Source of the DNA: Candidatus Limiplasma sp.
GTDB lineage: Bacteria > Bacillota > Clostridia > Christensenellales > Aristaeellaceae
Direction: 5' to 3'
Length of the DNA: 64,000 nt
Assembly (NCBI GenBank): GCA_035353615.1
Contig: DAOPZY010000007.1
Location: forward strand, 20,373-84,372
Shown here: in pieces, positions 3,009 to 35,210 of the stretch
Position numbering within the stretch: the first letter of the stretch is position 1
Layout: the number at the start of each line of letters is the position of its first letter
Program-made: the position numbers and the translations under genes
Notes under the pieces: generated by a model
Told to the model about the DNA's origin: nothing
What the model saw: the letters and a program-made list of their open reading frames with translations, nothing else
Databases searched by the model: none

Positions 3009-3023
3009 GGAGGCCATACCGCC

Positions 3024-5580: not shown

Positions 5581-5589
5581 CGGCCATTG

Positions 5590-5760
5590 GCCGGCCCGTC
5601 CCCTGACGAAACGGAACGGGGTCAATGGCAAAGCCCCGCGGGGCGCAGAGGCAAGGCCCTTTGCCCTGCCGGAGGCCCACAGCGCGGCGAGGTTGAAACA
5701 GAAACGCCGCGAGCGCCGAAGGCGCAAGGGTCAGGGGCCGCGCGCAGGGTTTTCTAAACG
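5590..5760. repeat. Degenerate copy of the dispersed intergenic repeat family, between purD and purL
   Basis: The segments ggggtcaatggcaaagccccgcgggg and ggcaaggccctttgccctgccggaggccc resemble modules of the repeats at 36477-36846 and 39976-40545. Confidence 0.5.
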
Positions 5761-5832
5761 CCATGGACGGCGGCAATGCCCCAGCCGGCGAAGGTTTTGC
5801 GCATTCGACTGATAATGTTTCAGGAGGTAGTT

Positions 5833-9540: not shown

Positions 9541-9669
9541 AGGTCGCCCTCCGGTTTGCCGCGCTTTTCCGGCAACCGCGTTTGCGCGCGCGGCGCGGAA
9601 GCTTGCCGCATAACGAACAACGCGTTGCTACCGGCGCGCGGCAGATTGCGGCCCGCATAAACGCGGCGG

Positions 9670-9698
9670 TTGCATTCCGGCCCTGTTTTTGCTAGTAT
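9670..9698 (+). promoter_or_regulatory. Candidate sigma-A promoter for purB
   Basis: TTGCAT (9670-9675), a 17-nt spacer, then TAGTAT (9693-9698), about 100 nt upstream of the purB ATG. Confidence 0.5.
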
Positions 9699-9797
9699 GG
9701 GTTCGGCGGGCCGCGCCGATTCCCTTGCCTTTGGCCCGCGCCGGCTCGCCCGCGCGTTCGCCCCAAACCCAACGCTGTTTCCACACAGGAGGTCACT

Positions 9798-17565: not shown

Positions 17566-17701
17566 GCGGCTCAGCCGGGCGGCGGCGTAAAACCCTGCCA
17601 TCGGGCAGCCGCCTTCTTTCCCAAGCGTGAAAGGAAAAACACACGTCTGGCGCGAATAGGGTACCGTAATGGGAACAGACCGTTGGAAAGGAGCGACCGG
17701 C

Positions 17702-19849
17702 ATGCAAAAAAAAGCGTCAGCTTCACGGATGATTCGCGCCGCCCTTGAAAAAGCGCGCGCGGCATTCCGCGCCCCGGCGCTCAAACGGATTGCGCTTGGC
17801 GCGGTGTGCGTGTGCGCATGCGCCGTGCTCACCGGCTGCGCCGCGCTGCAAAGCCTGACGGCCGCTTTGCCGGCGCAAACGCAGGCGAGCTCAGGCCCCA
17901 ACCTTGATTTGCTCGCCCTGCCCGCCTATGAGGATCAGGAGGGCGGCGAAAGCGCGGCCAGCGACGGCGGCACAGCCTACGGCGCGGTGGATTTGTGGCT
18001 GGACGCGACCCAAAACGCCGGGGGCATCAGCGCGCTGACCACAAGCATGTATCCCCATGCGGGTAAAAAGTACCGCGAAGGCGGTTTCCATTACCGGTAC
18101 GGCACGCAAACCGGATGGTATGAAAGCCTGCTGCGCGATTTTCTCACCGCGGCCGGCGATACGCGCGTGCGAACCCTGCGCAACGGAAACGAAACCTTCC
18201 CGGAGGGCGTTCTGGAAGGGTTCGGCCTCGCGGCGGCGGACGCGGAAGCCGGCGCTTCGCTGTGGCGCGATCTGCACACCTGCGCCGTGGATACGCAGGC
18301 GGGGCTTTTCAGCCAGTTTTCCGCGGAGGAAATGGCCAACAGCTTTTACAGCCTTGGCTCCGCGGTATGGAACAACCGTTTGAACGGGCTGGACACCCAG
18401 TTGCTTGAGAACTCGACGCTTTCCGGCGCGATGAGCGCCGCCCTGACCGCGCAGACGGAGGCGATTGCGGCCGGCGACGCGGGCTATGTGCTGGCTGCCG
18501 GGAGCGATGGTCAACAGTGCGCGTTTTATAACGCTTTGGAAAATCTGGACCCCGAAAGGCTCAGCATCATCACGGTGGACCCTGCCTCGGTGCGCAAGGT
18601 GAGCGGCTCGGACGCGGACGGTCAGCCCGTCGCGTGGTACGAGCAGGCGCTGCGGGAACGCGGCGTGTTTGACCGGGGGCTATGCGTGGGCGTGCTGGAT
18701 TTTACGCTGGACTATCTGGGCCAGATGTCCAGCGTGGGCATAGCGGACCTCAGCGAGCCGCTCGTTTGGGGACGCGTGATTTTGGATGAAAAAAAGCAGA
18801 CCTTTGAAAACCTGGGCGTGATGCCCCGGCAGATGCTCACGTTTGTGATTGGTTCCAAAACCATGGTGAACGGCTTTATCCAGCGCCTGAAGGATACCAT
18901 TGACGCGGACCGCTCTCTGCGCGGCCTGCGCGGCCCGCAAAACGGCGAGCTTACCTATACGGCCAACGGCCAAACGGTTACGCAGCAGCCGTTTTCGTTC
19001 AGCTGGCAGGCGACGGTGATCGCCCGCCCCGGCATGGGGTATTATACGCAGCACACCGAAGGGACGGCCTTCGCCGAGGTTTCATCGGCGGCGCAGGCGG
19101 AGGAAACCGCTGCCGCCACAGGAGCCGACGGTTTGCCGCTTTTTACCCTCGTCAGTAGCGCGGACGGGAGCCTGCCGGATTACACGCTCAAGATCCGCTT
19201 TCCCATCGCAACCAGCGATGACGGGGCCAAACTGGATGTGAGCAAGCTCAGCGGCGCGAGCGTAGACACGCTCAGCACACTTTTGCTGACCCAAACGCTT
19301 GCCAACACCGCCGCAAACCGCGAAACTGCGCCGGCGGGCGCGCAGGTGATACCGTACCGGGACAAGCTGTATGTGTTTGAATCGGGAAAGGCGGACGGCG
19401 CTTTTACGCTGGCCGGCGTCGAGCAGGTGGGGGACGAGCTGGTCTGCTCCGTGCAGGCGAACGGCAAAGCGTTGCAGACCGGGTATTACCGCCTGCGCCT
19501 GTCCGCGGATGTAACAGCCGATCAGGTGACGTGGGAACAGGTGCCGTGGATTGACGGCGAGGACAGCCTGAGCGTCTCCATAACCGACGCCGACGCGTAT
19601 GCGTGGGAAACCTTCACCGCCGCGATGACCGAATACGACCGGGACGCCAAGGGGATCCCCAAGATGTTCCAGCACGCGTGGGGAAGCTACACGGATAAGC
19701 TGTACCACGGTTTGCGGGTGCCGGATTTTCCGCCGGTGTACAAGGCGTTTGCGCTGCGGGAGCTGACCGGGCAGGTCCGCGCGGCCGCTGCTTCGGACAC
19801 CAGCCCGCTGATCCGCTGCGCGTTTGAAGTGTTTGTGCCCGGCCGGTAA
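17702..19849 (+). CDS. Large predicted lipoprotein, function unknown
   Basis: 715 aa from ATG 17702, with AAAGGAG 8 nt upstream. It has a positively charged N-region, a hydrophobic core IALGAVCVCACAVL and the lipobox LTG-C. I recognise no catalytic motif. Confidence 0.7.
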   Translation: MQKKASASRMIRAALEKARAAFRAPALKRIALGAVCVCACAVLTGCAALQSLTAALPAQTQASSGPNLDLLALPAYEDQEGGESAASDGGTAYGAVDLWLDATQNAGGISALTTSMYPHAGKKYREGGFHYRYGTQTGWYESLLRDFLTAAGDTRVRTLRNGNETFPEGVLEGFGLAAADAEAGASLWRDLHTCAVDTQAGLFSQFSAEEMANSFYSLGSAVWNNRLNGLDTQLLENSTLSGAMSAALTAQTEAIAAGDAGYVLAAGSDGQQCAFYNALENLDPERLSIITVDPASVRKVSGSDADGQPVAWYEQALRERGVFDRGLCVGVLDFTLDYLGQMSSVGIADLSEPLVWGRVILDEKKQTFENLGVMPRQMLTFVIGSKTMVNGFIQRLKDTIDADRSLRGLRGPQNGELTYTANGQTVTQQPFSFSWQATVIARPGMGYYTQHTEGTAFAEVSSAAQAEETAAATGADGLPLFTLVSSADGSLPDYTLKIRFPIATSDDGAKLDVSKLSGASVDTLSTLLLTQTLANTAANRETAPAGAQVIPYRDKLYVFESGKADGAFTLAGVEQVGDELVCSVQANGKALQTGYYRLRLSADVTADQVTWEQVPWIDGEDSLSVSITDADAYAWETFTAAMTEYDRDAKGIPKMFQHAWGSYTDKLYHGLRVPDFPPVYKAFALRELTGQVRAAAASDTSPLIRCAFEVFVPGR

Positions 19850-19915: not shown

Positions 19916-20542
19916 ATGCCGAACAAACTGTTCTTCCGCATCCCAACCCACAACCGCACCAAGGTATTGCTGTGCTACCTGCTGGCATGGGGGGTAGCGT
20001 TGCTGTTGCCCTATCTGGGGCTGACGCGGCTGTACCCGTATAAACTGGCAGGCTCCGCGCCGGAAGTGTCCCAGAGCGTGCTCAGCCTGCCGTTGGCGTT
20101 GCCCGGCACGGTCAAAGAATTGCTTACCGCCGCGCAGTTCTCCTCGGACATGAGCCCTGCAGCGCTCAGCGTGGCAATCGCGGCCCGCGACCGGCTGTGG
20201 CGTTACGCGGTGGCCGGGGTGATGGCGCTGGCGGCGCTTTTAAGCCTGCTGTGGCAACTGCTGTGGCGCGTTCGATACCGCAGACCCAAACAGGCGGCCC
20301 GGGCAGCCATGAGGGCCGTTATGGACTATCATCTGTCCATGGCGGGGATTATCGCGCTGAACGCGCTTATGGCGTTGGCGCTGTACCTGCTGGGCGTGCG
20401 GTGGATCGGCGGGCGCACCGTGTGGGATTATCTGGTGTATTTCAGCGGCTTTGTGCTCAACCCCCTCGCGGCGATGGTCTGTTTTCGGCTGGCCGCGCCC
20501 CCGGCCATATCGGGCAAACACGGGTTTTTCAGGCGGCTGTAA
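19916..20542 (+). CDS. Small integral membrane protein (about 4 TM helices), function unknown
   Basis: 208 aa with hydrophobic segments VLLCYLLAWGVALLLPYLGL, YAVAGVMALAALLSLLWQLLW, MAGIIALNALMALALYLLGV and YLVYFSGFVLNPLAAMVCF. Same strand, 66 nt after the lipoprotein gene. Confidence 0.6.
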   Translation: MPNKLFFRIPTHNRTKVLLCYLLAWGVALLLPYLGLTRLYPYKLAGSAPEVSQSVLSLPLALPGTVKELLTAAQFSSDMSPAALSVAIAARDRLWRYAVAGVMALAALLSLLWQLLWRVRYRRPKQAARAAMRAVMDYHLSMAGIIALNALMALALYLLGVRWIGGRTVWDYLVYFSGFVLNPLAAMVCFRLAAPPAISGKHGFFRRL

Positions 20543-20649: not shown

Positions 20650-22755
20650 ATGTCCAACTATCTGCTTGCCATTGGCGGCACCGGCAACAAAATTCTGGAG
20701 GCGCTTGTCTATGCCTGCGCGGCGGACGCCCTCTATACCCTGGATGAAGATCGCCGCCCGGTTCCGCTTGCGGAGGTGCGGGCGCTGATTGTGGATGTGG
20801 ACGCAGCCTGCGGCAACACCACCCGCGCCAAGCAGGCAGCCGAACATTACGAGGCTGTGCGCGGGGCTTTCGCCGCGTCGCGCGTGCCTCATCGGGGCTT
20901 TCATACGGCGCTGAGCGTGGAGCGCTGGAACATGAACCTTGCCAAGCGCGCAAGCTCGGTCGCGGGCATTACGCAAAACCACCGGCGGGATCGCCTGCTT
21001 GCGGACAGCCTTTTTTCCCGCACAGAGGCCGAGCTGGAATACAGCGAAGGGTTTCGGGGGCATCCGGACCTTGGCGTGCTTTTTTTTGCGGATTTGCTCA
21101 ACAATCTGGACGCGTTGGCCGCCGAGGGCCAGCCAGACGAGATGGTCACGCTGCTTAAAACGATTCGCGCGGAGCTGGACGCGGGCGAAACCGTGTCGGT
21201 GATGCTGGCGGGGTCCATATTCGGCGGCACGGGCGCGAGCGGCATCCCCAGCATTTCCCGCTTTCTGCGGGAACGCTTTCGGGACCGCGCGGACCGGTTT
21301 GTGCTTTCGGCGGTGCTGATGCTGCCTTACTATGAGGTGCCGCCCGCCACCGCCGACGAAACGATGGAAATCGTCGTCAAATCCTCAGCGTTTTTGGACA
21401 AGGCCCGCACAGCCCTGCAATATTACGGCATGGAAGGAATGATCCGCGCCGGGGAGGACGACGCGCGCGGCGTGTACGACGCGCTCTACCTGCTGGGCCT
21501 GCCCCGGGAGGCGTTTGTGACCCAGCGCATCTACTCCACAGGCTCGCAAAGCCAGGAAAACGACGCGCACCTGCTGGAATGGCTGGCCGTGCGCTGCGCC
21601 GCGCAGTTTTACCGCACGGGTTTCCGCGGGGCGGACGCGCACAACATCGACTGCTATTATTACCAGTGGCACAGCCGCGATGTGTCCTGGGATTGTTTTG
21701 ACGCGGAAAGCGCCCTGTACAAAAACGCCTACGGCGGGCTGATGAAAAGCGCCGCGCTGTTTTTTGCCGAGTGTTACCCCACGCTGCGCGCCTGCATCCG
21801 GGAGGAAGCCAAACGCGAAGCCCGCACCGTGAATTACTGGACCGCCTATTTTTATGACGCGCGCCGGTTAAACGGCGCTCAGCGCGCCCAGCTGGAAAAA
21901 CTGATCGACTCGCTGTACCGGCTTTTCGCGTTTTACGCCAATTGGATGTGGCAGGTATTGCGCACGCTTCCGCCAACCCTTCGCCCGGAAAAACCGGGCG
22001 AGGCGGACGCGCGGGCGCTGGCGGAGCTGTACACCCGCCTGATTGACGCGCGCGGCGTGTTAGCCCAGTACGAAACCGCGCCCGCCGCCCACACCGCCGC
22101 GGAAGCGGAAACCTTGCAGGGCGAGGCGGCTGCTTTGGGCGAACAGCTCAACCGGCAGATCGTAACCGCCGGGGGGCACGCGTACCTCACGGCGGTCAAG
22201 GCGGAAAAAACGCGGCGCGCCGGGCAGCTGGAAAGCCAGCGGCAGGCGCTGCGCGAGCAGGAGGAGCGCATAGCTCTTTGGGAAGGGGAGGACGCGCGCT
22301 ATATGGACCCGCAAACCCTCCAGCAGGAAAAAGCCCGTTATGAAGCCATGCAGCGGGCTTACGCCGGCATGGCGGACCGGCTTTCGCTGGTGCAGGAGGA
22401 CGAAATGCGCGCCGTGGAGCGCCGCGTGGCCGATACGCCCGCGCTGGCGACCGATCTGGAATTGCCGGATAACGGGCTGTTTGAGCCGGAAGCGCTTAAT
22501 GCCCTGCACGAGTTGCTCACCCTGTACGGCGCGGGGGAAGAAGCGCGCGATATGCGGGCCGTGGAGGCCCTGCGAAAAACCCTGTGGGAGCGCCTGCACC
22601 GCCTGATTGCCCAACGCGTGCCCGATCGCCTGACGGCGGTGCAGGCCGTCGCGGGCATGGGCGGCGGCAACCGGATGGGCGAAGGCCCGCAGGCCGCGTT
22701 TGCAAGCTTTACGGCGGCTTTGCTGGCAGCCGTTGTGGAGGAGGAAAACCCATGA
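20650..22755 (+). CDS. Divergent tubulin/FtsZ-superfamily GTPase-like protein with C-terminal coiled coil
   Basis: 701 aa with RBS AGGAGG. It has an N-terminal glycine loop LLAIGGTGNKILEAL (T1-like), then GFRGHPDLG, then SIFGGTGASGIPS at residues ~188-200 (T4 tubulin-signature-like; nt 21211-21246). Residues ~470-600 are E/R/Q/A/L-rich heptad-like helix. Confidence 0.65.
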   Translation: MSNYLLAIGGTGNKILEALVYACAADALYTLDEDRRPVPLAEVRALIVDVDAACGNTTRAKQAAEHYEAVRGAFAASRVPHRGFHTALSVERWNMNLAKRASSVAGITQNHRRDRLLADSLFSRTEAELEYSEGFRGHPDLGVLFFADLLNNLDALAAEGQPDEMVTLLKTIRAELDAGETVSVMLAGSIFGGTGASGIPSISRFLRERFRDRADRFVLSAVLMLPYYEVPPATADETMEIVVKSSAFLDKARTALQYYGMEGMIRAGEDDARGVYDALYLLGLPREAFVTQRIYSTGSQSQENDAHLLEWLAVRCAAQFYRTGFRGADAHNIDCYYYQWHSRDVSWDCFDAESALYKNAYGGLMKSAALFFAECYPTLRACIREEAKREARTVNYWTAYFYDARRLNGAQRAQLEKLIDSLYRLFAFYANWMWQVLRTLPPTLRPEKPGEADARALAELYTRLIDARGVLAQYETAPAAHTAAEAETLQGEAAALGEQLNRQIVTAGGHAYLTAVKAEKTRRAGQLESQRQALREQEERIALWEGEDARYMDPQTLQQEKARYEAMQRAYAGMADRLSLVQEDEMRAVERRVADTPALATDLELPDNGLFEPEALNALHELLTLYGAGEEARDMRAVEALRKTLWERLHRLIAQRVPDRLTAVQAVAGMGGGNRMGEGPQAAFASFTAALLAAVVEEENP

Positions 22756-25700
22756 AGCGTAACCGCAAAGATGAGCGCAAAGCGGAGCTGGACCGCAATA
22801 CCTCCTACCTCACGCTGCTGCCGACGATGGACGAAGGCTTTCATACCGGGTACCAGACCCGCGCGGGCGTGGTGAGCGATGGAAACCAGAAGCCCCACGA
22901 GTGGCTGGAAAGCGTCGCCCGCAACCTGCTGACCCCGGGGGAGGACGTCGGTTACGCCATCCCGGATGTGCTGGCGGGGGAAGCCCAGCTTCGCCGCCTG
23001 ATGCGCCTACCCTTTGAGGACGCGATGCGCCATCAGGAGATGCTGGATTGGCGCGGCGCGCTAGCAACCTTGCTGCTGTGGGACGGTTGGGCGCAGGACG
23101 ACACCTGGCCCCAGCTGGCTTGCGAAAACATGCTGGACGGCGAAAGCGGCGATTTTATCAAAAGCGTGCGGGCCGCTCTGCCGGCCGGCCGCGAAAAGTT
23201 TGGGCTGTGGCTGTTTACCCTGTCGGTGGAGCGGGACGGCGTGCCGGAACGCAAGGCGATCGGCATGCTCTCGCCCACGGTCGCGCTGGCGCCCGCGGCG
23301 AACCCCGGCGACCTTTCCTCGCTGCTGCCGGAGTGCGTGCGGTGGTACAACCGCAAGCGCAAACGATTTGAGGACCCCTGTTCCTGGCTTGGCGAGGCGG
23401 ACCGCGCCCGGCTGGTGCAGCGGTTGCGCTATTTACAGGCCCTCAACGAGCGCGCGGAACTGAAAAGCGTGCTGTATGCGGCCGACGCTTCGCTATGCGG
23501 GTTGCTCGACCATTTTGTGAGCGATTTGATGGCGCGGCGCGGGTCGTGGCGGGAAAGGCTGGAAGCCGGGGACCCCCGTGCCGAGCGCGAGCTGTACATC
23601 CGCACGCTGGCGGTGTACGGGCTGGGTGAAATCAGCGTTTTACCGGGGCTGACCCGGCGCGATGATCCGCTTTCACTTTCAGAGCTTGCGCAAAACCCGC
23701 TGCTGGCGCGCCTCGCGCCCACAAACACCGTAGCGCCCGCCGAGCTGGGCGGCGCGAGCGCGGTCACCTACAGCTATCAGGGCAAAGCGTTTGCCATGGA
23801 AAGCCCGCTGTACCTTCTGGAGCCGGCCAACGCGCCCGAGGAAATGGACACGCTGCGCCAACTGTGGCAGGAGCTGAGCCTGCCCGCCCAGTTTGACGGG
23901 GAGTGGAACCGCCAGATTGCCCGCCGTTTTCTGGCGTTGGCCAACCGGCTGACCGGTCGGCTGGGAGCCAGCCGCAAGGTGATCGCCATGCTCCGGGAAT
24001 GGAGCCAGCGCCACGCGGCCTACCGGGAATCGGGCGACCGCTCCGTGGCGTTTCAGCTGCCCCTGAAGGACGCGCCCGCCACGCTGGCCGGCCTGAGCGC
24101 GGAAATGATCGGCCTGACCGACCCCAGCGTGCTGACCGGCGCGTTTTCAGACTGTCTTTTGCTGTGCGAGGGCGTGATGCCTTTCCATTTGCCGGTGCTG
24201 AACGATCGCTGCGCCGTGCGCGGCGCTGAAAACCTCTACGCCGTGCCGCCCATCAGCTCCGCGCTGGCGCTGTGGCTTTCCGAAACCGCCGGCGACGCGC
24301 AGGAGGATTACTTCCGCCCGACGCTGCCTGAGGACGCGTTTGCCTTTGAGGCGTTTGAAGATGAAGAAGGCCGCAAGGTGCGGGCGCATATGCGCCTGAC
24401 CCGCCGCCGCCGGGCGGAGGGCGCGGCGTTCCAGAACCGTATTGAGCTGACGCGCGTGTACCGGATGGGCGCGGAATTTGCGGAGGGGATGGCGGTGCCC
24501 GTCGCCGCGCGTGAATTGCCCACCGTGCGCTTTTGGCCGGCCGCTCGCCTCGCCGCGGGGCAGTGGAGCGCGTACTACGTGCTGTCCCAAAAACCGGACG
24601 CAGTGGATGTGGCGGTGCCCACCGGGAATGGGTGGGCGCAGGGCGAACCGCGCCGCGCCGTGGACGACAGTGAGCGCAGCACGCCGACGGAACGCCGCTG
24701 GCAAATAGCCCGCACCGAGCGCTGGCCGTTGTATGTGGGGCTGATGCGCGGCAAGCTGTGCCTGGGCGCGCTGCCCAACGACGAGCCGCTTTCTCAGTTG
24801 AAACGCGAAGGCCCCGCCGCCGTGGCCATCGACTTTGGCTCCAATGCCACCACGGTGATGATGCGTCAGGGCGAACATATCCGGCCTGCGGCGCTATCCC
24901 CCAGGTTGCTGAAAACGCTTTTGCAGGGGCGCTCCGGGGATGATCTGCTCCTGCCGGACGAGCTGTTGCCGGCCGTAACCTATCAGGACGAGGCGCGCCC
25001 CTCCACGTTTGGCAGCGTGATGGACCTGTTTGGCGATGATGAAGAAAAATGGAACGCGCCGCTGATTGACGGGCATATTTACTACCCGCGCGATCTGGCT
25101 TCGCTTTTGCGCAAAAACCCCAATACGCTGTACTATGACCTGAAATGGGGCGACGAGTCTTATCAGGTGCGCTGTTTACGCCTGTTTATCAAGCAAACCA
25201 TGCTGCAAGCCTCGCTGGCGGCGCGGCTGAGCGGTTCCCCTTCGGTGAGCTGGCGGGTGTCCATGCCCAACGCCATGCCCCTGCCCCGGCAGGAAGCCTA
25301 TCTGGAAACGGTGCGCGGCCTCGCGCGGGAGGTGGCTGCCGAAACCGGAATGCCGCTGACCCAGGGTGTGCCCGCGGCGCTTTTTGCCAGTGAGAACCAG
25401 GCGGATGGCCTCTATTTCCGCCGCCGTAACGAGGTGAACGCCCGCAGCGGCTACCTGAACATGGATGTGGGCGGCGGCACCACCGACCTGAGCGTGTGGC
25501 TGGGCGGCGCTCCATTTGCGACGCTGGAAACCTCGCTGCTGCTGGGTTGCCGGCAAATCCTGTTCGAATCGCTGAGCGCGCGCCACCGCGACGAGTTCGA
25601 AGCGGATTTTGCCCGCGCGGAGGATGGGTTGAAAAACCTTGTGCGGGATTTGACGCGCGCGTTTGCGCGCGGCGACGCCTCCCTTCGGGCGCGCCAGAAG

Positions 25701-26393
25701 AATGTGTTTTTGCTGGACGCTTTTTTTGCCGGATATGGCGAGAGCGTCGCGGCCATGATGGCGCAGGCGCGCGCGCAGGGTCGCGTGAGCCTGCTGGAAA
25801 GCCTGCTTTTGCTCAATTTTGGGTTTCTGTTCCGGCTGTGCGGAGAAATGCTGGACCGTTGCGACCGGGCGGAGGAAAGCCGGGCGCAGTTGCGCCCGCG
25901 CATGGAAATCTGCGTTGCGGGCAACGGCGGGCAATTCCTGAAGTATTTTGACGAGGACGCGCGCAATAAGCTGTTCCGGCTGGCGCTTTCGGGGCTGAAC
26001 CCGCGCCACCCGGTGCAGGAACTGTTGCTGGTGCAAAGCCGCCACCCGAAACAGGAGGTGGCGATTGGTCTTTTAGCGGACGACAGCCGCCTGCGAAGCT
26101 CCGTGCAGGGCACAGAAGCGATCAGCCCCGCGCAGGCGGCGGCCGCCGATCCGGACAAACGCCGCCACTTGCTCAGGGAATACCTGCTGGCGTTTTACGC
26201 CGCGTTTCCGCAGGCGGGGGAAAAGCTGATGGGCAACGCCTTTGACCCGGAGGGCGGCGCGCGCCTTGTGCGCCTGAAGCCCGCCGCGGAAATTGAGCTG
26301 GAAGCGATTTTGGATAACGAGTTGAGCGAGGGCGACGAGTTTTCCGGCTACGTGCGCGCCTTTGCCGGCATGAAGCGTTTGTGGGGCATCTGA
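22752..26393 (+). CDS. Giant protein with a C-terminal actin/Hsp70-like (ASKHA) ATPase core; N-terminal ~690 aa unassigned
   Basis: 1213 aa from ATG 22752, preceded by GGAGGAGGA. An ATGA overlap with the upstream stop implies translational coupling. The track start at 22584 would overlap the upstream gene by 170 nt. Phosphate-1 is AVAIDFGSNATTV (nt ~24822-24857), phosphate-2 is NMDVGGGTTDLSVW (~25458-25500) and the adenosine motif is ICVAGNGGQFL (~25906-25945). Confidence 0.7.
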   Translation: MKRNRKDERKAELDRNTSYLTLLPTMDEGFHTGYQTRAGVVSDGNQKPHEWLESVARNLLTPGEDVGYAIPDVLAGEAQLRRLMRLPFEDAMRHQEMLDWRGALATLLLWDGWAQDDTWPQLACENMLDGESGDFIKSVRAALPAGREKFGLWLFTLSVERDGVPERKAIGMLSPTVALAPAANPGDLSSLLPECVRWYNRKRKRFEDPCSWLGEADRARLVQRLRYLQALNERAELKSVLYAADASLCGLLDHFVSDLMARRGSWRERLEAGDPRAERELYIRTLAVYGLGEISVLPGLTRRDDPLSLSELAQNPLLARLAPTNTVAPAELGGASAVTYSYQGKAFAMESPLYLLEPANAPEEMDTLRQLWQELSLPAQFDGEWNRQIARRFLALANRLTGRLGASRKVIAMLREWSQRHAAYRESGDRSVAFQLPLKDAPATLAGLSAEMIGLTDPSVLTGAFSDCLLLCEGVMPFHLPVLNDRCAVRGAENLYAVPPISSALALWLSETAGDAQEDYFRPTLPEDAFAFEAFEDEEGRKVRAHMRLTRRRRAEGAAFQNRIELTRVYRMGAEFAEGMAVPVAARELPTVRFWPAARLAAGQWSAYYVLSQKPDAVDVAVPTGNGWAQGEPRRAVDDSERSTPTERRWQIARTERWPLYVGLMRGKLCLGALPNDEPLSQLKREGPAAVAIDFGSNATTVMMRQGEHIRPAALSPRLLKTLLQGRSGDDLLLPDELLPAVTYQDEARPSTFGSVMDLFGDDEEKWNAPLIDGHIYYPRDLASLLRKNPNTLYYDLKWGDESYQVRCLRLFIKQTMLQASLAARLSGSPSVSWRVSMPNAMPLPRQEAYLETVRGLAREVAAETGMPLTQGVPAALFASENQADGLYFRRRNEVNARSGYLNMDVGGGTTDLSVWLGGAPFATLETSLLLGCRQILFESLSARHRDEFEADFARAEDGLKNLVRDLTRAFARGDASLRARQKNVFLLDAFFAGYGESVAAMMAQARAQGRVSLLESLLLLNFGFLFRLCGEMLDRCDRAEESRAQLRPRMEICVAGNGGQFLKYFDEDARNKLFRLALSGLNPRHPVQELLLVQSRHPKQEVAIGLLADDSRLRSSVQGTEAISPAQAAAADPDKRRHLLREYLLAFYAAFPQAGEKLMGNAFDPEGGARLVRLKPAAEIELEAILDNELSEGDEFSGYVRAFAGMKRLWGI

Positions 26394-26849
26394 GCGGACC
26401 TTGGAAGGTTCGGGTCACCCGCCGGCGGATCGGAACAACGCAGCCATACTGTAAGTCAGACTGCTGAAAAACCCTCGCCGCAACGAAAAGGGGTCAGGGG
26501 CAATGCTCCTGTGGGGCACGGCGGCGAGGCCCCCTGCCCGTCGGAGCCCTTATGCGGCAACCTGTAAACACCACGGGTGCCGAAGGCACAATGGGGTGCG
26601 GCTTATGGACTCTATCCGGTCTGCCAACGGGCTGGCTGTATGAAGTTCCCTTGGCTAAAGGATAACCCTCCGCGCCGCCGATTGGCGGGCAGAAAACCGC
26701 AAGGGCTACAACGAAACAACCTGGGCGCAACGCCGGCCGGCAATGCCTCAATACCGCGGGCTATACCGTTTGCACCCCGAAGCATTTGCGAGAGCCTGCA
26801 ACACGCAACGCCTTGGTTTGCGCCGGAGGCGCGCCCTGTGCGCCCCCGG

Positions 26850-27551
26850 TTACGCCTTTTCCAACCCAAGCGCCAGCCGGGCGGCTTTTTCGGCGTGCAC
26901 AACCGTGGTGTCTAAAAGCGGCACCGGCGTATCCGTTTGGCTTACCAGCATGCCGATTTCGGTGCAGCCGAGGATCGCGGCCTGCGCGCCCGCGTCCGCC
27001 ATGCGCCGGATCACCCGGAGGTAGGCTTCCCTGCTCTGCGGCAGCACACGGCCAAAGCAAAGCTCGTCAAAGATCACGCGGTGCAGCATCTCGCGCTCCT
27101 CCGGCGTGGGGATATCCACCTGAAGGCCGCGCGCGCGGAGGCGTTCCCGGTAAAAATCCTGCTCCATGGTGTAGCGCGTGCCCAGCAGCGCCACGCGGGC
27201 GTAGCCGGCGGCGAGCGCTGCGTCGGCGGTCGCGTCCGCAATGTGGATGAAAGGCACGCGGATCGCTTCTTCAATTTGCGCGCAGCTTTTGTGCATGGTG
27301 TTGGTGCCCAGCAGCACAAAATCCGCCCCGCCGCATTCCAGCCGCCGGGCCGCGTCCGCGAGCAGCTCGCCCACGGCTGTCCAATCCTCCTTGCGCTGCT
27401 CGGCCTCCACCTCGGCAAAGTCTACGCTGTACAGCAATATCTTTGCGCTGTGGTACCCCCCCAGCGCCCCGTTTACGCGCTCGTTGACAATCCGGTAATA
27501 CGTTTGGGTGCTTTCCCAGCTCATGCCGCCGATGAGTCCAATGGTTTTCAT
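26850..27551 (-). CDS. Aspartate/glutamate racemase family protein (aspartate racemase-like)
   Basis: 233 aa from ATG 27551 (RBS GGAGGG). N-terminus MKTIGLIGGMSWEST and the second catalytic Cys motif ILGCTEIGML. The track N-terminal extension is not supported. Confidence 0.85.
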   Translation of the reverse strand: MKTIGLIGGMSWESTQTYYRIVNERVNGALGGYHSAKILLYSVDFAEVEAEQRKEDWTAVGELLADAARRLECGGADFVLLGTNTMHKSCAQIEEAIRVPFIHIADATADAALAAGYARVALLGTRYTMEQDFYRERLRARGLQVDIPTPEEREMLHRVIFDELCFGRVLPQSREAYLRVIRRMADAGAQAAILGCTEIGMLVSQTDTPVPLLDTTVVHAEKAARLALGLEKA

Positions 27552-27619
27552 GCGCAACCCTCCCTGTTGGTAAATTGCAGGGATTGTACAGCGAAACCCG
27601 CGCCGCGTCAAGAGGGATG

Positions 27620-27648
27620 TTTGACAAACCGCCCCCCGCATGGTATCC
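27620..27648 (+). promoter_or_regulatory. Candidate promoter for the GT2/membrane-protein pair
   Basis: Perfect -35 TTGACA (27620-27625), a 17-nt spacer, then TGgTATCCT (27640-27648). Confidence 0.5.
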
Positions 27649-27699
27649 TTTGGCTGATTGTTCCGCCTGTTCAAAAAACGCGCTTCGGAGGCGTTACCG

Positions 27700-28638
27700 A
27701 TGAAAATTGCCGTTCTGGTGCCCTGCTATAACGAGGCGAAAACCGTTGCCCGCGTGGTAACGGACTACCGCGCCGCGCTGCCCGAGGCCGATATCTACGT
27801 GTATGACAACAACTCCACCGACGGCACCGACGAAATCGCGCGCGCCGCCGGGGCGATTGTGCGCTACGAACGGCGGCAGGGCAAAGGCAACGTGATCCGC
27901 ACCATGTTTCGGGAAATTGACGCCGACGCCTACCTGATGATCGACGGCGACGATACCTACGCCGCCGACAACGCGCGCGAAATGGTGGAGCTGGTGCTGA
28001 ACCGCAAAGTGGATATGGTGGTGGGCGACCGGCTCAGCTCCACCTACTTTACGGAAAACAAGCGGCCTTTCCACAATTTTGGCAACACGCTGGTGCGCTC
28101 GCTGGTCAACCGGATTTTTAAGGGCAACATTGCCGACCTGATGACCGGATACCGCGCGTTCAGCTACCAGTTTGTCAAATCGTTCCCCGTGCTTTCCAAG
28201 GGGTTTGAAATCGAAACGGAAATGAGCATCCACGCGCTGGACAAAAACCTTTCCATCCAGAGCGTGCCCGTGGGTTATAAAGACCGCCCCGCCGACAGCC
28301 CCAGCAAGCTGAACACCTACACCGACGGCTTTAAGGTGCTGCGCACCGTGGCGCGCCTGTACAAGGAATACCGGCCGATGTCATTTTTCGGGATTTTTAC
28401 GCTGGTTTTCGCGCTGGCGGGGGGGGTTTTGTTCCTGCCCGTTCTGGCGGAATACCTGCGCACGGGGCTTGTGCCGCGTTTTCCGACGCTGATTGTTTCC
28501 GGCGTGCTGATGACGCTGGCCATCCTGATGCTCGTCTGCGGCCTGATTTTGGATACGGTGGCCAAAAAGCACCGGCAGCTGTTTGAAGTCAACCTGAACA
28601 TTCTCCGGCTGCTGCACGGGCGTTCCGACCCGCGCTGA
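27700..28638 (+). CDS. Family 2 glycosyltransferase, polyprenol-phosphate sugar synthase type (GtrB/CsbB-like)
   Basis: 312 aa from ATG 27700 (RBS GGAGG). Motifs VLVPCYNEAKTV and a DxD (IDGDDTY), plus two C-terminal TM helices. Confidence 0.85.
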   Translation: MKIAVLVPCYNEAKTVARVVTDYRAALPEADIYVYDNNSTDGTDEIARAAGAIVRYERRQGKGNVIRTMFREIDADAYLMIDGDDTYAADNAREMVELVLNRKVDMVVGDRLSSTYFTENKRPFHNFGNTLVRSLVNRIFKGNIADLMTGYRAFSYQFVKSFPVLSKGFEIETEMSIHALDKNLSIQSVPVGYKDRPADSPSKLNTYTDGFKVLRTVARLYKEYRPMSFFGIFTLVFALAGGVLFLPVLAEYLRTGLVPRFPTLIVSGVLMTLAILMLVCGLILDTVAKKHRQLFEVNLNILRLLHGRSDPR

Positions 28639-30989: not shown

Positions 30990-32318
30990 CTAACAGTAAT
31001 GGGGCAGGCCGTCGTCCTCTGTGGGCAGAGGGATCTGCAAACCCAGCACGGCGGGCCATTCGCCGCGCTCGGCGATGATGAAGCCCATCAGCATCCCCAG
31101 ATGGGTGTGCAGGTGGCGCATCTGCCCCACCATCAGCGTAAGCCGTGAGTAGGGGCTGCCTTCGGGGCAGGCGGTCAGCGCGCGGTCGCTGAGCGCGTTC
31201 AGGTAGGCGCGAAGCCGAACCGTAATTTCCGCCAGATAGGTTTCCAGCGACAATGGGGAAAGCGCGGGGCCGTCCACGGTCAAATCCAGATTGTTCAGGC
31301 CCGGCCGGTGAATGGCAGGCTCATGGATTTCCTGCGGGTTGATAAACCAGTGATCCAGCGAATGCAGCATATGATAGGCGTGCCGCCACAGGGGCGCGCC
31401 GCAGTATTCCCGCTCCCACAGGCCGCTGTCCGCGGCGCAGCGGAGCACGTTTCTCACCTCCCACAGGGCGCGTTCCGTCAGTTCCGCGAGGGTGTTTACC
31501 TCGCTTCGGGCGGCGGAATCCGCCGGGGACGCGACAGGGAGAGCCTCCGCCTGCGCGGGCCGTGGCTCCGCCTGAGCGATGCGGGCGGCCTCAAAGCGAA
31601 GCCCTGCCGCGCGGAGGCCCGGCATCGCCGCCTGTCGCTTGTCTGAGCCATCGGCTTCCGCCTGCGTAGCTTGCGTGCCCGCGGGGGCAATGCTTGCCTC
31701 GCCGGGGCAGTCCGCAGCGGCGACGGCCCCCGCGACTGCCTCGGGAGCGTCGCTGTTTACAGCGGAATGCACACGGTGTTTTTTCCGGAATCGCTTGCTG
31801 TAGCGCTCCTCCTCGCTGAACACGCAACCGCAGTATTTTTGGATGTACAGGTTCAGCGCCCGCGCCTCCTCCTGCCCCTGCCGAAACAGCGGGCGAAAAT
31901 CGCGGTATAAAAACGCCACCCCAAACTCCTGCGCGGCCTGCTCGGCGGCCGCGCGGAGCAGCTCGTGGTTTTGGTAAGGGCTGATGAACAGGGTGCTTGA
32001 AAAATGCGTGAAGCCGTGCTCCGCCGCATAGCGGGCGGTTTGCCGCATCCGCGCCGCGTAACACACGAGGCAGCGCCCCGTGATGTTTTCCGCCACGGCC
32101 TGGGTAAAAGGCCGCAGCCCGTATTCATCTTCCAACAGTAATGAAAGGCCGATGGTTTTGGCGTATTCCACAAGCGTATCCCGGCGCGCTCGGTACTCCG
32201 TATAGGGGTGAATGTTTGGGTTGAACCAGTAGCCGGTCGGCTCCAGCCCCTCGCCGCGAAGGCTTTGAATGCAGGCAACGGAACAGGGCGCGCAGCAAAT
32301 GTGCAGGAGTAGCTTCAT
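30990..32318 (-). CDS. queH: Epoxyqueuosine reductase QueH fused to a DinB/YfiT-like C-terminal domain
   Basis: 442 aa. The N-terminal ~185 aa (MKLLLHICCAPCS..., WFNPNIHPYTEY, CLVCY, YCGCVFSEEE) is QueH/DUF208. An Ala/Gln/Pro-rich linker of ~95 aa follows. The C-terminal ~160 aa has a His triad (HMLHSLDHW ... HLHTHLG) typical of DinB-fold proteins. Confidence 0.75.
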   Translation of the reverse strand: MKLLLHICCAPCSVACIQSLRGEGLEPTGYWFNPNIHPYTEYRARRDTLVEYAKTIGLSLLLEDEYGLRPFTQAVAENITGRCLVCYAARMRQTARYAAEHGFTHFSSTLFISPYQNHELLRAAAEQAAQEFGVAFLYRDFRPLFRQGQEEARALNLYIQKYCGCVFSEEERYSKRFRKKHRVHSAVNSDAPEAVAGAVAAADCPGEASIAPAGTQATQAEADGSDKRQAAMPGLRAAGLRFEAARIAQAEPRPAQAEALPVASPADSAARSEVNTLAELTERALWEVRNVLRCAADSGLWEREYCGAPLWRHAYHMLHSLDHWFINPQEIHEPAIHRPGLNNLDLTVDGPALSPLSLETYLAEITVRLRAYLNALSDRALTACPEGSPYSRLTLMVGQMRHLHTHLGMLMGFIIAERGEWPAVLGLQIPLPTEDDGLPHYC

Positions 32319-32577
32319 AACGGTTCGCCTCCACGCCTATTGTAGCACAAACCCCGCGCTGGGCAAAGCGCGGGGTCGGCATGCGATTGCTCCGAAAAAA
32401 CCAACGCCCCGCCAAGCCGGAAGGGCGCGGGTTCGACTCAGTCGTTTTTCCGTGAATATCGAAAGCGTCTGACCGGCCCGTGAATGTAAAAAACCTTACC
32501 AAATGCGCGGGAGTGGGCGCAAAACTGTTCCGATTCAGGCGGCGTTATGCTATACTAGGGATACCCAAAGGAGATGG

Positions 32578-33597
32578 ATGGACATGCGAAAACCGCGCAA
32601 CGCGCTTTGCCTTCTGCTGTCGGCTGTTCTTTTATGCACGGCGGGCACGGCGCTGGCGGGAAATCAGGACGCTCTGTTTGAGCAGGCTGCCGCCGCGTTG
32701 CTTTCCCCCCGGGAGGCCGCGCTGCAAAGCGGCGCGTACACGCTACGCGCAGGCGCGAGCGCTTATGTGCCCGACGTTGCGCCGGAGATTACCCCTTATG
32801 ATCAGTTGGACGCGCTGACCATGCCGGCGGTAAACGGCACATTTGACTCCTCCGACCCGGCTGTGGTGACCGTGGACGCAAACGGCCTGATGACGGGCGT
32901 CGCCGAGGGCGAGGCGACCGTTACCTACCGCGCGGCAACGGGGGACGTAAGCTATGCCGTAACCGTGCGGAAGGACGCGATGCCGGAGCTTGCCAAGGCG
33001 ATGGTGTACGTGGCCAAGCATGAGTTTTACACCGTAAAACGCGCCCGTTTGCCGAAATATAACCAATATGCCAAATGGTATTACGGTAAAAAGAAAGAGG
33101 TCGGCTGGTGTTCGGTGTTTACCATCTGGTGCGCGAACGCCAGCGGCAACAACCCCTTGCAGGAAGAAAGCCTGACAACCCTGCCGGATACGGACGTGGT
33201 GTATTTCCGCGAAGGGCAGGTTGGCAACCAGTATGACGGCTTTATGAAGCTGAACCGTTTCGTGAGCGTGCCGCGCCCCGGGTATCTGGTGATTTATGCG
33301 GACATGAGCAACGGCTACCGCACCACGCATATCGGCGTCGTGGTGGACGCGGTGGACCGCGGCGACGGCATCTATCAGGTAACCACGGTGGAAGGCAACA
33401 TGAGCAACACCGTGAAAAGCTATTGCTACCTGTATGACAGCAACGCCGCCAACAACACCGTGGGCGTGGAAAAGGGCCAAAAGCTCAAGCGCAACATGAG
33501 CGAGCTTCCGGCGGCGGAACAGACCGACCCGCTGGAGCAATACACGCTGCATACCGATCACTGGAGCGTGTTCGGCTTTGGCGCAAGCTGGCTGTAA
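32578..33597 (+). CDS. Secreted Big_2 + CHAP-domain cell-wall hydrolase candidate
   Basis: Signal peptide LCLLLSAVLLCTAGTALA. Ig-like Big_2 segment SSDPAVVTVDANGLMTGVAEGEATVTY. CHAP-like Cys (GWCSVFTIW) and His (THIGVVV). The start is 32578 or 32584. Confidence 0.75.
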   Translation: MDMRKPRNALCLLLSAVLLCTAGTALAGNQDALFEQAAAALLSPREAALQSGAYTLRAGASAYVPDVAPEITPYDQLDALTMPAVNGTFDSSDPAVVTVDANGLMTGVAEGEATVTYRAATGDVSYAVTVRKDAMPELAKAMVYVAKHEFYTVKRARLPKYNQYAKWYYGKKKEVGWCSVFTIWCANASGNNPLQEESLTTLPDTDVVYFREGQVGNQYDGFMKLNRFVSVPRPGYLVIYADMSNGYRTTHIGVVVDAVDRGDGIYQVTTVEGNMSNTVKSYCYLYDSNAANNTVGVEKGQKLKRNMSELPAAEQTDPLEQYTLHTDHWSVFGFGASWL

Positions 33598-33778
33598 AGC
33601 GCCCGAGCGCAAGGATAACCCGGAAGGGCCGCACAAGGGCGCGGGTACGGCATGCCGCCCGCGCGAAGCAAGCTTTCCCCCAACCGGGCCGATCAGGCGC
33701 GCGCGGAAAGCCCACCAGCGCAAACCCCTCTGTGAACCCATTCCTGAAAACCGTGAATCAATATAAGGAGGAACCATC

Positions 33779-34321
33779 ATGAAGGAACTGAAAGGAACCA
33801 AAACCGAAGCCAACCTGCAGGCCGCGTTCGCAGGGGAAAGCATGGCGCGCAACAAGTACACCTACTACGCCTCCAAGGCCCGGAAGGATGGGTATGTGCA
33901 GATCGCAGACCTGTTTGAGGAAACGGCCAACAACGAGAAGGAGCACGCGAAAATCTGGTTTAAACTGCTCCACGGCGGCGATGTGGCCGCCACCGAGGAT
34001 AACCTGCTGGACGCGGCGCAGGGCGAAAACTATGAGTGGACGGATATGTACGTGCGCATGTCCGACGAAGCGCGCGCCGAAGGGTTTGACGTGATTGCCG
34101 AGCTTTTCAGCCGCGTGGCCAAAATTGAAAAAACCCATGAGGAACGTTACCGCAAGCTGCTGAGCAACATCAAGGACGGCCTTGTGTTCAGCCGCGACGG
34201 GGATCAAATCTGGGAGTGCTCCAACTGTGGGCATATCATCGTTGGGAAAAACGCGCCCGAGCTTTGCCCGGTTTGCAAACACCCCAAGTCGTTTTACCAG
34301 ATCAAGGCGGAAAATTACTGA
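33779..34321 (+). CDS. rbr: Rubrerythrin
   Basis: 180 aa with diiron ExxH motifs ([18 protein letters not shown]) and a C-terminal rubredoxin CSNCGH...CPVCKH. RBS AAGGAGGA. Confidence 0.93.
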
Positions 34322-34745
34322 CGCTCCCCGGCTTTCCCCTGCCGAAACGATGGGTCGGCTGGGGAAATCGGCTGGGCGAAACCGGCCTGAAACCGGCCCG
34401 AACCTCTCGCGTTCGCGGGGATGCGGGCGGCAACCCGCCAACGGAGCAGTAGCGGCGCTTGGCGCGCGCGCCTGCGACTGCCGCTCAAACCTCCACAGCC
34501 ATCCCCCTGCCGACGTTTTCGAAACGCGAAAACCGCATGCGGGGTCGCCGCGCCTCCCACGGTGAGCGGGCGGCGATTTTACGATCAGGTTCAGGCAACC
34601 GTCGGGGCTGGCAACGGACAGCTTTTGAAACCATACAAACGCTCGCCCTGCCAAAAGGCGGGGGTTTTCAGCGACCTGCGGCGATTCTTCGCCGCCTGCC
34701 GGGAAATGCGTTTCGCCCGGCCCCCTTTGAAAGGAGGGTACCTCC

Positions 34746-35168
34746 ATGGTGGAAATATACCCCTACCGGCCCGAATTTGAGGAACCCGTGATGCAGCTGA
34801 TTTCCAACGAGGGCGATGAGTGGTCCATCTATTGGCAGGAGCCTAACAACTGGCACTATCAACGGCTGCTGACCGATTCCATCACCTATGTCGCGCTGGC
34901 GGAGGGGCAGGTGTGCGCTTTTCTGCGCGCGCTGGACGATGTGCTCAACCTCTATGTGTGCGATTTGCTGGTGGTGGAGCCACAGCGCGGGAAGGGGCTT
35001 GGCAAGGCGCTGATCGACCGCGTGAAGGAAGATTATCCGGAAGCGGGCATCTACATCCTGTCCGGTAACGACGAATATTATGACCATATCGGCTGCACGC
35101 GCGACGGCGCGGTGTACCGCTACTGCGCGGCCGATGCGCAGCCCGCGGCGGAAACGCCCAAAGCCTGA
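34746..35168 (+). CDS. GNAT family N-acetyltransferase
   Basis: 140 aa with the acetyl-CoA binding motif VEPQRGKGLGKALI. RBS AAAGGAGGG. Confidence 0.75.
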   Translation: MVEIYPYRPEFEEPVMQLISNEGDEWSIYWQEPNNWHYQRLLTDSITYVALAEGQVCAFLRALDDVLNLYVCDLLVVEPQRGKGLGKALIDRVKEDYPEAGIYILSGNDEYYDHIGCTRDGAVYRYCAADAQPAAETPKA

Positions 35169-35210
35169 GAAAGCCGCGGCTTGCGTAAATACCAAAGGGA
35201 GGCGCCGCCC

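Follow-up and report, generated by a model that had tools for sequence, protein, structure and literature searches.

To our knowledge, FtsZ and FtsA are the only well-studied bacterial pair in which a tubulin-family GTPase and an actin-fold ATPase work together at the membrane. In PilM/PilN/PilO/PilP-type complexes, the gene for a cytoplasmic protein of the actin/Hsp70-fold (ASKHA) superfamily is accompanied by genes for small membrane proteins and for a lipoprotein, and the products connect the cytoplasm to the envelope. The tubulin relatives termed FtsZl1 were described by Makarova and Koonin in 2010 in operons with vWA, GTPase, kinase, and OmpA genes and a predicted function in membrane remodelling; a vWA protein is found in the majority of these operons (PMC2875224). 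The Tubulin_2 family has been equated with the FtsZ-like proteins of that study (PMC9871819). CoCoNuT systems join Hsp70-like units of nucleotide-binding and substrate-binding domains to McrB-type AAA+ GTPases; their ATPase motifs are reported to be degenerate, and nucleases and cold-shock domains are present (PMC11090510). Here, we describe a four-gene cassette in a 64,000-nucleotide stretch of DNA from Candidatus Limiplasma sp. (Bacillota; Clostridia; GenBank assembly GCA_035353615.1, contig DAOPZY010000007.1, positions 20,373 to 84,372), referred to as the window. The cassette encodes a lipoprotein, a four-transmembrane (4-TM) protein, a GTPase of the Tubulin_2/FtsZl1 type, and an ATPase of 1213 residues, in an order that is nearly always kept among relatives. 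The ATPase gene (gene 4) occupies 22752..26393 and, like all cassette features discussed below, lies on the plus strand. Its open reading frame, an alignment of homologues, AlphaFold2 models, and Foldseek searches together support a real, unannotated actin/Hsp70-fold ATPase that consists of a large new N-terminal module (N-module) and an ASKHA core. The ASKHA family is itself new, as are its N-module and its partner, and a putative function is proposed for it below.

The cassette resembles the FtsA-FtsZ pair in placing an ASKHA ATPase and a tubulin-superfamily GTPase side by side and in tying both to membrane proteins. It differs in its reversed gene order, in the type of GTPase (Tubulin_2/FtsZl1, not FtsZ), and in an ATPase that is about three times larger than FtsA and structurally nearer to Hsp70. 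The parallel with PilM is a putative one, and no sequence or structure match to PilM occurs among the best 50 structures or the listed profile matches. With FtsZl1 operons, the cassette shares a central Tubulin_2 gene, a predicted membrane association, and OmpA/MotB-type neighbours, comparable to the MotA and OmpA genes that follow distant cassettes; by contrast, the window cassette has no vWA protein, extra P-loop GTPase, or kinase, and the 2010 study contains no description of a giant ASKHA partner, a lipoprotein, or a 4-TM protein (PMC2875224). No vWA gene is present in the window cassette or in the related loci L004, L005, L007, L008, L010, and L011, and one lies beside the cassette in L001 alone. 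In that locus, which holds the most divergent Clostridia-type cassette, a 726-residue vWA protein and a second, 1195-residue Tubulin_2 protein are encoded nearby (L001:15393-21300), linking the classical FtsZl1-vWA context to the ASKHA cassette. CoCoNuT systems offer a likeness of another kind, an Hsp70-like domain fused to or neighbouring a GTPase in an uncharacterised prokaryotic system (PMC11090510); the cassette, by contrast, combines a tubulin-like GTPase with an ATPase whose motifs are intact, and no nucleic-acid domain was recognised in it.

The open reading frame that ends at 26393 has its longest form from a GTG at 22584, and an ATG at 22752 gives the 1213-residue product. Homologues (n = 57) are 1159–1278 residues long, align end to end, and share the consensus N-terminus MK..., which identifies the ATG at 22752 as the right start. 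At the junction CCATGAAG, the stop codon of the tubulin-like gene (20650-22755) and the start of the ATPase gene share four nucleotides (ATGA), as a first-pass annotation of this DNA had noted in describing overlapping stop and start codons. The possibility, raised there, that the long frame represents two genes or a pseudogene is answered by the occurrence of a single open reading frame in more than 55 related species.

The C-terminal ~420 residues are predicted to form an ASKHA nucleotide-binding core. An AlphaFold2 model of residues 641-1213, based on an alignment with 54 full-length homologues, resolves residues 689-1107 (24816..26072; pLDDT 83.5, pTM 0.84) into two β-β-β-α-β-α-β-α lobes, the second copy of which starts at residue 901 and carries a helical insert. 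Lobe I of the model contains strands 689-695, 699-706, 709-712, 832-838, and 876-880 and helices 803-826, 844-865, and 881-891, with an insert between strand 3 and helix 1 at the subdomain IB position. Lobe II contains strands 901-906, 911-916, 925-929, 1050-1056, and 1090-1095, and its helices lie before residue 1044 and at 1058-1080 and 1102-1107. Foldseek comparison of the core with the PDB gave 677 matches at E ≤ 0.001, the strongest of which reaches E 5.5e-9 with a probability of 1.0. The best 50 of these 677 are all nucleotide-binding domains of the Hsp70/Hsc70/DnaK/Ssb/mortalin/BiP type, with target-normalised TM-scores of 0.32–0.49 (mostly 0.45–0.49 for chains of isolated nucleotide-binding domains) and 12–16% identity. 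These moderate TM-scores and low identities mark the core as a distant relative of Hsp70, not as a member of that family. The two-lobed core and the order of its phosphate-1, phosphate-2, and adenosine motifs place the protein in the ASKHA superfamily. The fold proposed in the first-pass annotation for residues ~690-1100 thus reappears in the duplicated topology of the model, in the structural matches, and in family-wide conservation of the motifs.

At the level of sequence, the 1213-residue protein has no match in Pfam, NCBIfam, PADLOC, or PHROGs, and a search of PDB sequences with the single sequence returned noise alone (small terminase, tudor). Family profiles gave no significant match to PDB sequences. 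Their sub-threshold PDB matches are almost purely ASKHA proteins (ParM, mortalin, MreB, exopolyphosphatase, FtsA, actin, DnaK, EutJ, and MamK) and fall always on phosphate-1 or phosphate-2, at the corresponding position of the target. Membership by sequence in the MreB, ParM, MamK, or actin families was considered and rejected at E values of 0.026–2.3. The ATPase likewise has no Pfam HSP70 (PF00012) match, and the family profiles reach E 0.035–2 against Hsp70 proteins of the PDB, over single motifs.

Conservation was followed in 55 close members of the family, with identities down to 30%, and in 117 full-length representatives with mutual identity below 50% and 20–34% identity to the window protein; 95 of the latter are encoded as separate genes and 22 are fused to a tubulin-like region. 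The signatures D694-F-G-S..T, D905-x-G-G-x-T-x-D, and A-G-x-G-G are invariant in the close members, and their key residues are near-invariant in the 117 representatives, leaving no sign of the free variation that would be expected of chance motifs. The phosphate-1 motif AVAIDFGSNATTVMM (residues 690-704; 24819..24863) holds D694, kept in 99 of 101 non-gap cells of the representative alignment, and G696, kept in all aligned cells; a profile alignment matches this stretch to mortalin/DnaK residues 6-33 below threshold (E 0.035). In the phosphate-2 motif YLNMDVGGGTTDLSVW (residues 901-916; 25452..25499), D905 is found in 116/117, G907 in 117/117, and T or S at position 910 in 100 of the 117 representatives, and the conserved pattern extends to D912. 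Sub-threshold matches to this motif come from ParM, MreB, FtsA, exopolyphosphatase, actin, and EutJ. The adenosine motif ICVAGNGGQFLKYF (residues 1053-1066; 25908..25949) lies in the model on strand 1050-1056, the fourth strand of lobe II, and on the helix that follows; G1057 is present in 116/116 cells, and position 1059 is Gly in 110 cells and Ala in 6.

Three further conserved elements complete the predicted nucleotide site. The lobe-I insert at the IB position carries YYDLKWGDE (25131..25157), in which K798 is conserved in 98/117 representatives (81/95 separate-gene and 17/22 fused) and W799 in 108/117; K798 would be the equivalent of Hsc70 K71. The connect-1 helix, SENQADGLYF (25389..25418), opens the modelled helix 881-891 directly after strand 876-880. 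Its E881 (94/117 representatives; A884, 98/117) corresponds in position to the catalytic Glu of the Hsp70 sequence E-P-T-A-A-A and, by analogy, may be catalytic. A connect-2-like motif SRHPKQEVAIGLL (26037..26075) shows conservation of K1100 (106/117), E1102 (107/117), and G1106 (113/117). Judged by alignment, the residues for ATP binding and hydrolysis in Hsp70 and actin appear to be in place (D694, K798, E881, D905, T910, and G1057/G1059), and the conservation of the first four suggests that the core binds and hydrolyses ATP.

The likeness to the nucleotide-binding domain of Hsp70/DnaK thus extends from the two-lobed fold to the DxG, connect-1 Glu, DxGGGTxD, and GxGG elements, which occur in the same order and with Hsp70-like spacing. 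The three motifs named in the first-pass annotation lie where it had put them, at D694, D905, and residues 1053-1066, separated by 211 and 152 residues. Its further remark that the gap between phosphate-1 and phosphate-2 is unusually long, and so indicates inserted subdomains, stands for the length of 211 residues and fails as a sign of special insertion; ~190 residues separate D10 and D199 in Hsc70, which belongs to the closest structural class, and the gap therefore corresponds to a lobe-I insert of Hsp70 size. Beyond the core, the two proteins diverge. The ATPase has no C-terminal substrate-binding domain or lid, and ~90 helical residues follow residue 1107. On the other side of the core it carries the new 680-residue N-module, and its partner is a tubulin-like GTPase instead of DnaJ/GrpE. 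No J-domain or nucleotide-exchange co-chaperone is encoded in the cassette or among its conserved neighbours in the window, L001, L004, L005, L007, and L008.

The C-terminal helical extension (residues 1126-1213; 26127..26390), defined by the model and by conservation, contains helices within 1126-1211 with pLDDT 86–95 and terminates in an invariant ...KRLWxI, with K1208, R1209, and W1211 conserved. In L007, the C-terminal ~135 residues of the ATPase are shared at 45% identity with two downstream genes (L007:14139-16237), which points to a shared domain for docking or oligomerisation. Three downstream genes of the Picosynechococcus plasmid (L010), annotated as prefoldin-domain, hypothetical, and TM2-domain proteins, likewise share domains with each other.

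The N-terminal ~600 residues are predicted to form a family-specific module without a known structural relative. As first noted for the ~690 residues that precede the core, nothing is assignable in them by Pfam, PADLOC, NCBIfam, PHROGs, or PDB sequences. Modelled separately, residues 1-690 reach an overall pLDDT of 84.6, with confidence from about residue 72 onward and values below 50 for residues 1-71. The model consists of an α/β region with three-helix stretches (72-422), a small α/β region (430-525), and an all-β region (530-675). Foldseek searches of this model against the PDB and BFVD found nothing at E < 0.001, and the all-β region gave weak matches to Ig/Fab-like β-sandwiches alone (E ≥ 0.03). 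An internal duplication was discarded after hhalign comparison of four sub-regions (probabilities ≤ 2.3%). A profile of the N-module matches most of 146 distant representatives, upstream of the ASKHA domain, and the module is thus not a lineage-specific add-on. It can be divided into part A (residues 47-422; 22890..24017), the modelled α/β region that BLASTP finds fused to a tubulin-like GTPase domain in the proteins P0058-P0061, and part B (residues 430-680; 24039..24791), in which the model places the small α/β region followed by the all-β region and which is conserved in nearly all distant relatives. Ahead of part A, the peptide TSYLTLLPxMDEGFHxGYQ (residues 17-35; 22800..22856) combines conservation with low pLDDT and is predicted to be disordered. 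T21, L23, P24, M26, G29, and G33 are at least 90% conserved in the close family alignment, as are L23, P24, and G39 in 60 diverse members, and a "hydrophobic-hydrophobic-L-P" core recurs near the N-terminus of distant relatives. The peptide was not detected in the fused proteins, where matches to the N-module begin at profile position ~71-190. A docking role for this peptide seems plausible.

The tubulin-like partner (gene 3; 20650..22755) is a 701-residue protein assigned by Pfam and by its motifs to the Tubulin_2/FtsZl1 type, with a C-terminal half rich in coiled coil and a conserved tail. The Pfam Tubulin_2 match of the window protein is weak, as its E value of 1.9e-4 falls short of the curated cut-off; the majority of its homologues are annotated with PF13809, and a Selenomonadaceae relative in L080 passes the cut-off (37.3 bits). 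In tubulin-like proteins encoded as separate genes, the motifs IGGTGxK, GFRGHPxLG, GSIFGGTGASGxP, and LPYY do not vary, even between Clostridia and Cyanobacteria. The C-terminal ~60 residues (22575-22752) form the conserved tail VPDR...(A/I)AGLGGG...P..AFxSFxxxLLxxVxEE, which is kept in both the ~700- and the ~530-residue length classes and is not amphipathic by hydrophobic moment. It could serve to bind a partner, as the C-terminal peptide of FtsZ does. Conservation of both this tail and the terminal peptide of the ATPase may point to peptide docking of the kind seen between FtsA and FtsZ.

The two upstream genes predict an attachment to the envelope. Gene 1 (17669..19849) encodes a predicted lipoprotein of 726 residues with a signal peptide and a lipobox (...VLTGC), recognised from the hydrophobic segment 41-59 followed by Cys; its product has no Pfam, NCBIfam, or PADLOC match. 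Homologues occupy the same position in 55/79 related loci, and in L004, L005, L007, and L008 the protein at the gene 1 position also has a signal peptide followed by Cys. Gene 2 (19916..20542) encodes a 208-residue membrane protein with four hydrophobic segments in a hydrophobicity scan. It has homologues in 49/79 loci, and 4-TM proteins of 149–170 residues fill its slot in the distant loci L007, L008, L010, L011, and L072. None of the four cassette proteins of the window has an NCBIfam match or a solved relative.

Association of the ATPase with the tubulin-like protein is found far beyond the window. A profile of residues 680-1213 searched against 1.84 billion cluster representatives identified 1012 clusters (50% identity) at E ≤ 1e-3, 634 of them at E ≤ 1e-10, from Clostridia, Bacteroidaceae, Acidobacteriota, and Cyanobacteria, some of them carried on plasmids of cultured strains; no Pfam family was assigned to the eight family members scanned. 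Tubulin-like relatives were collected by scanning one genome per species for the invariant motif GSIFGGTGA; they are encoded in at least 561 species genomes, and the 79 loci kept are those counted throughout. The same four genes occur in the same order in the Clostridia loci L001, L004, and L005. The order is kept also in relatives of ~20–25% identity, both in L007 and L008 and on cyanobacterial plasmids from Picosynechococcus sp. PCC 7003 and from Gloeothece verrucosa PCC 7822, on which RefSeq labels the neighbour a "tubulin-like domain-containing protein", as well as in Bacteroidaceae (L072), Acidobacteriota (L078), and Nostocaceae (L081). The plasmid of Picosynechococcus sp. PCC 7003 is NZ_CP016476.1, with the cassette at AWQ21_RS15655 to RS15640. 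In all Clostridia loci that include enough DNA, the ATPase gene immediately follows the tubulin-like gene, as it does in one genome each of Bacteroidaceae, Christensenella, Acidobacteriota, and Nostocaceae. The junction is the 4-nucleotide ATGA overlap in 41/61 loci and a gap of 3–29 nucleotides in almost all others. Read from the gene layout, the ATPase gene is probably co-transcribed and translationally coupled with the tubulin-like gene, and the linkage of the two is obligate in most lineages. The coupled production suggested by the first-pass annotation is in keeping with this overlap, with adjacency across phyla, and with two separate gene fusions.

These two independent fusions each join the tubulin-like protein to the N-module. 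The first is partial: the proteins P0058-P0061 (four clusters, ~900–915 residues) combine a tubulin GTPase region with N-module residues 47-422. P0058 shares 39% identity with the window tubulin-like protein over its first ~460 residues, and its residues 522-894 align with window residues 47-422 at 45% identity (BLASTP). P0059 (L003:10001-12709) stands alone, directly behind the aminotransferase gene that is also present upstream in the window. The partial fusion looks like a conserved, reduced form of the system. The second fusion is full: in all 22 representatives, a single chain of 1635–1771 residues runs from a tubulin-like region through the N-module to the ASKHA domain; one such cluster has nine full-length copies on different contigs. 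In the full fusions, IGGTGxK (T1-type), GFRGHP, GSIFGGTGASG, and LPYY are all degenerate, and the ASKHA motifs are retained. One full fusion, P0203 (L009:4210-9438), lies among polysaccharide-synthesis genes, without the two membrane genes.

The interpretation put forward here, which we regard as falling somewhat short of probable, is that the protein may act as a nucleotide-driven partner or regulator of the tubulin-like GTPase at the membrane, by analogy with the relation of FtsA to FtsZ. The N-module, perhaps aided by the disordered N-terminal "LLP" peptide, would bind the tubulin-like protein in a 1:1 ratio. Driven by ATP, the ASKHA lobes would open and close, and this movement could change assembly of the GTPase or its hold on the membrane by the 4-TM protein and the lipoprotein. 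Such a relation would be functionally of the FtsA-for-FtsZ type, built from different families. The ATPase and not the GTPase would be the indispensable engine, because the full fusions lose the GTP-binding motifs of tubulin yet keep those of the ASKHA core.

Membership of the protein in the FtsA family itself was rejected: its best sequence match to FtsA (E 0.25–3) covers the phosphate-2 motif alone, the best 50 structures are of Hsp70, and the insert is at the IB and not the 1C position. A candidate amphipathic tail of the FtsA kind was also dismissed, as the last 16–18 residues have a hydrophobic moment of 0.31–0.36, z ~0.5 against shuffled sequences. A hydrophobicity scan of the ATPase found no transmembrane segment apart from a buried core helix.

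Several observations weigh against an FtsA-like partnership. By structure, the core is nearest to the chaperone domains of Hsp70 and not to FtsA or actin. The ATPase has no FtsA-like amphipathic membrane helix, so membrane contact would need the 4-TM protein. In about 13 loci of Selenomonadaceae/Quinella, the same tubulin-like subfamily is encoded and the ATPase is missing, which indicates that the GTPase can work without it, and partial-fusion genomes (L003) have neither the ASKHA part nor the two membrane genes beside the fused gene. Distant cassettes, finally, are found on plasmids and beside MotA/ZorA-like genes, a setting that also fits a conflict system.

In one alternative, the protein is an Hsp70-type remodeller, with the N-module as a substrate clamp, that disassembles or recycles tubulin-like polymers or that folds or inserts the membrane partners, acting catalytically and not stoichiometrically. 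The identity of the best 50 structural matches as Hsp70-family nucleotide-binding domains, the Hsp70-like motif spacing (211 and 152 residues), and an all-β region (530-675) that adjoins the ATPase are all consistent with this proposal. A 1626-residue COG0443 "DnaK", a candidate relative of the present family, is also listed beside vWA and FtsZl1 genes in Magnetospirillum magneticum AMB-1 (amb2960-amb2961; PMC2875224, supplementary file 5). However, no Pfam HSP70 match was found in the eight members scanned (the window protein and seven distant relatives), and the ATPase is followed by a ~90-residue helical tail where a substrate-binding domain would be expected. The β region has no significant similarity to anything in the PDB or BFVD, the cassette contains no DnaJ- or GrpE-like genes, and covalent 1:1 fusions suit a fixed partner better than a turnover enzyme. 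On balance, a remodelling function is unlikely.

Also unlikely, in our estimate, is a role in defence or conflict, in which the cassette would be an envelope-based anti-phage or anti-plasmid module with the two NTPases as sensor and switch and the 4-TM protein, joined in diderms by MotA/ZorA-like stators, as effector or signal source. The genomic surroundings of distant cassettes provide its basis. The family is spread patchily across phyla and is plasmid-borne in cyanobacteria. After the cassettes of L072 (L072:11909-14543) and L078 (L078:11780-15008) lie genes for a protein of ~300–330 residues and a MotA_ExbB protein with a long coiled-coil tail, the latter matching ZorA at E 5e-7. In L008 (L008:12674-16102, minus strand), a ~300–330-residue protein, a MotA_ExbB coiled-coil protein, and an OmpA/MotB-like gene flank the cassette, and the MotA_ExbB and OmpA genes give weak ZorA/ZorB matches; AAA_12 helicase, DUF5677, SNase, and FtsK genes are further neighbours. 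An integrase lies near L007, and CoCoNuT systems provide a precedent for Hsp70-like domains joined to a GTPase (PMC11090510). The ZorA/ZorB matches are, however, weak and generic to MotA/MotB, and the MotA_ExbB-type neighbours may be a proton-driven stator add-on. PADLOC-DB v2 has no match to the four cassette proteins of the window and L008 or to the tubulin-like and ASKHA proteins of L072, the cassette proteins have no homologue in the phage collection searched, and Pfam scans of the cassette reveal no nuclease, protease, TIR, or other recognised toxin domain.

The genomic setting in the Limiplasma clade bears on the same question. The window holds chromosomal genes at 441-11234 and 30990-36434, among them a purine cluster (AIR synthase, AICARFT/IMPCHase, GARS, FGAM synthase, and adenylosuccinate lyase), QueH, a Big_2 protein, and a GT4 glycosyltransferase. 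This set of genes adjoins the cassette both in the window and in L004/L005, in differing arrangements, indicating local rearrangement. The cassette is chromosomal and vertically inherited in this clade. Its ATPases in the window and in L004/L005 are 45–50% identical, and persistence of the same housekeeping neighbours around proteins so diverged, although their order differs, is unusual for a defence island and argues for a cell-biological role.

The two least supported readings treat the core as an actin-like filament former or as a metabolic enzyme. In the first, the ASKHA core would polymerise in the manner of MreB, ParM, FtsA, or MamK to give a dual cytoskeleton, with the N-module decorating the filament. 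Its ASKHA fold with an intact nucleotide site would allow this, the sub-threshold profile matches include ParM, MreB, FtsA, MamK, and actin, and IMG names one family member "cell division ATPase FtsA". The structural matches are nevertheless to non-polymerising Hsp70 domains, the protein belongs by sequence to no actin-like family, and the 680-residue N-module and the 90-residue tail would need room in a filament, making polymerisation quite improbable. A small-molecule or sugar kinase or a polyphosphatase serving envelope polysaccharide, its adjacency to tubulin incidental, is very improbable. Sugar genes do flank several loci (GT2 and DUF6020 in the window; GT4 in L004/L005; Bac_transf, NTP_transferase, and epimerase in L009) and weak exopolyphosphatase matches occur (Ppx-GppA in one member, E 0.003; PDB, E 0.2–0.3), but homologues of the window GT2 and DUF6020 genes are found in 0/79 loci, the tubulin link is conserved and fused, and the structural neighbours among the best 50 are Hsp70 domains, not kinases.

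If partnership with the tubulin-like GTPase is accepted as the leading interpretation, a wider and more tentative proposition can be framed. At least four phyla may possess a second machine of tubulin and actin folds, independent of FtsZ and FtsA, in which an FtsZl1-type tubulin would have a giant, Hsp70-like ASKHA ATPase as its obligate and stoichiometric partner. The lipoprotein and the 4-TM protein would keep the two at the membrane, and in diderms MotA-like stators would be added. The ATPase cycle and not GTP hydrolysis would drive the work, and the fused tubulin domain would be a dead scaffold. Were this true, the N-terminal ~600 residues would constitute a new tubulin-binding fold.

The pairing matters in several respects. 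The cassette would represent a second, unrelated, and widespread combination of tubulin and actin folds, and the literature searched contains no description of a Tubulin_2 protein paired with an ASKHA protein. FtsZl1 systems, predicted in 2010 to remodel membranes, would gain a concrete and conserved missing component. The N-module, predicted with confidence over ~600 residues, offers a fold that has no known relative. The fused forms, in which the GTPase has decayed, provide a natural experiment on which nucleotide cycle matters, and cultured, genetically tractable strains carry the system on plasmids (Picosynechococcus sp. PCC 7003, PCC 8807, and PCC 73109, and Gloeothece verrucosa PCC 7822).

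Other genes near the cassette can be set apart from it. The window ABC exporters, GT2, and DUF6020 were considered as parts of the system and rejected, their counterparts being present in 3, 0, and 0 of the 79 loci, respectively. Between the ATPase and GT2 genes of the window (26394-27731) lie two overlapping open reading frames, 26937-27731 (plus strand, 264 residues) and 26850-27674 (minus strand, 274 residues); the former has no family match, and neither has a homologue in the 79 related loci. In the Selenomonadaceae/Quinella loci L071, L073, L074, L077, L080, L083-L085, and L087-L090, there is no ASKHA giant within 6.5 kb downstream, and a small open reading frame precedes the tubulin-like gene. 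The tubulin-like gene of L080 (L080:6424-8386) has among its neighbours genes for a LytR_cpsA_psr protein, a YrbL-family protein, and a restriction-type endonuclease.

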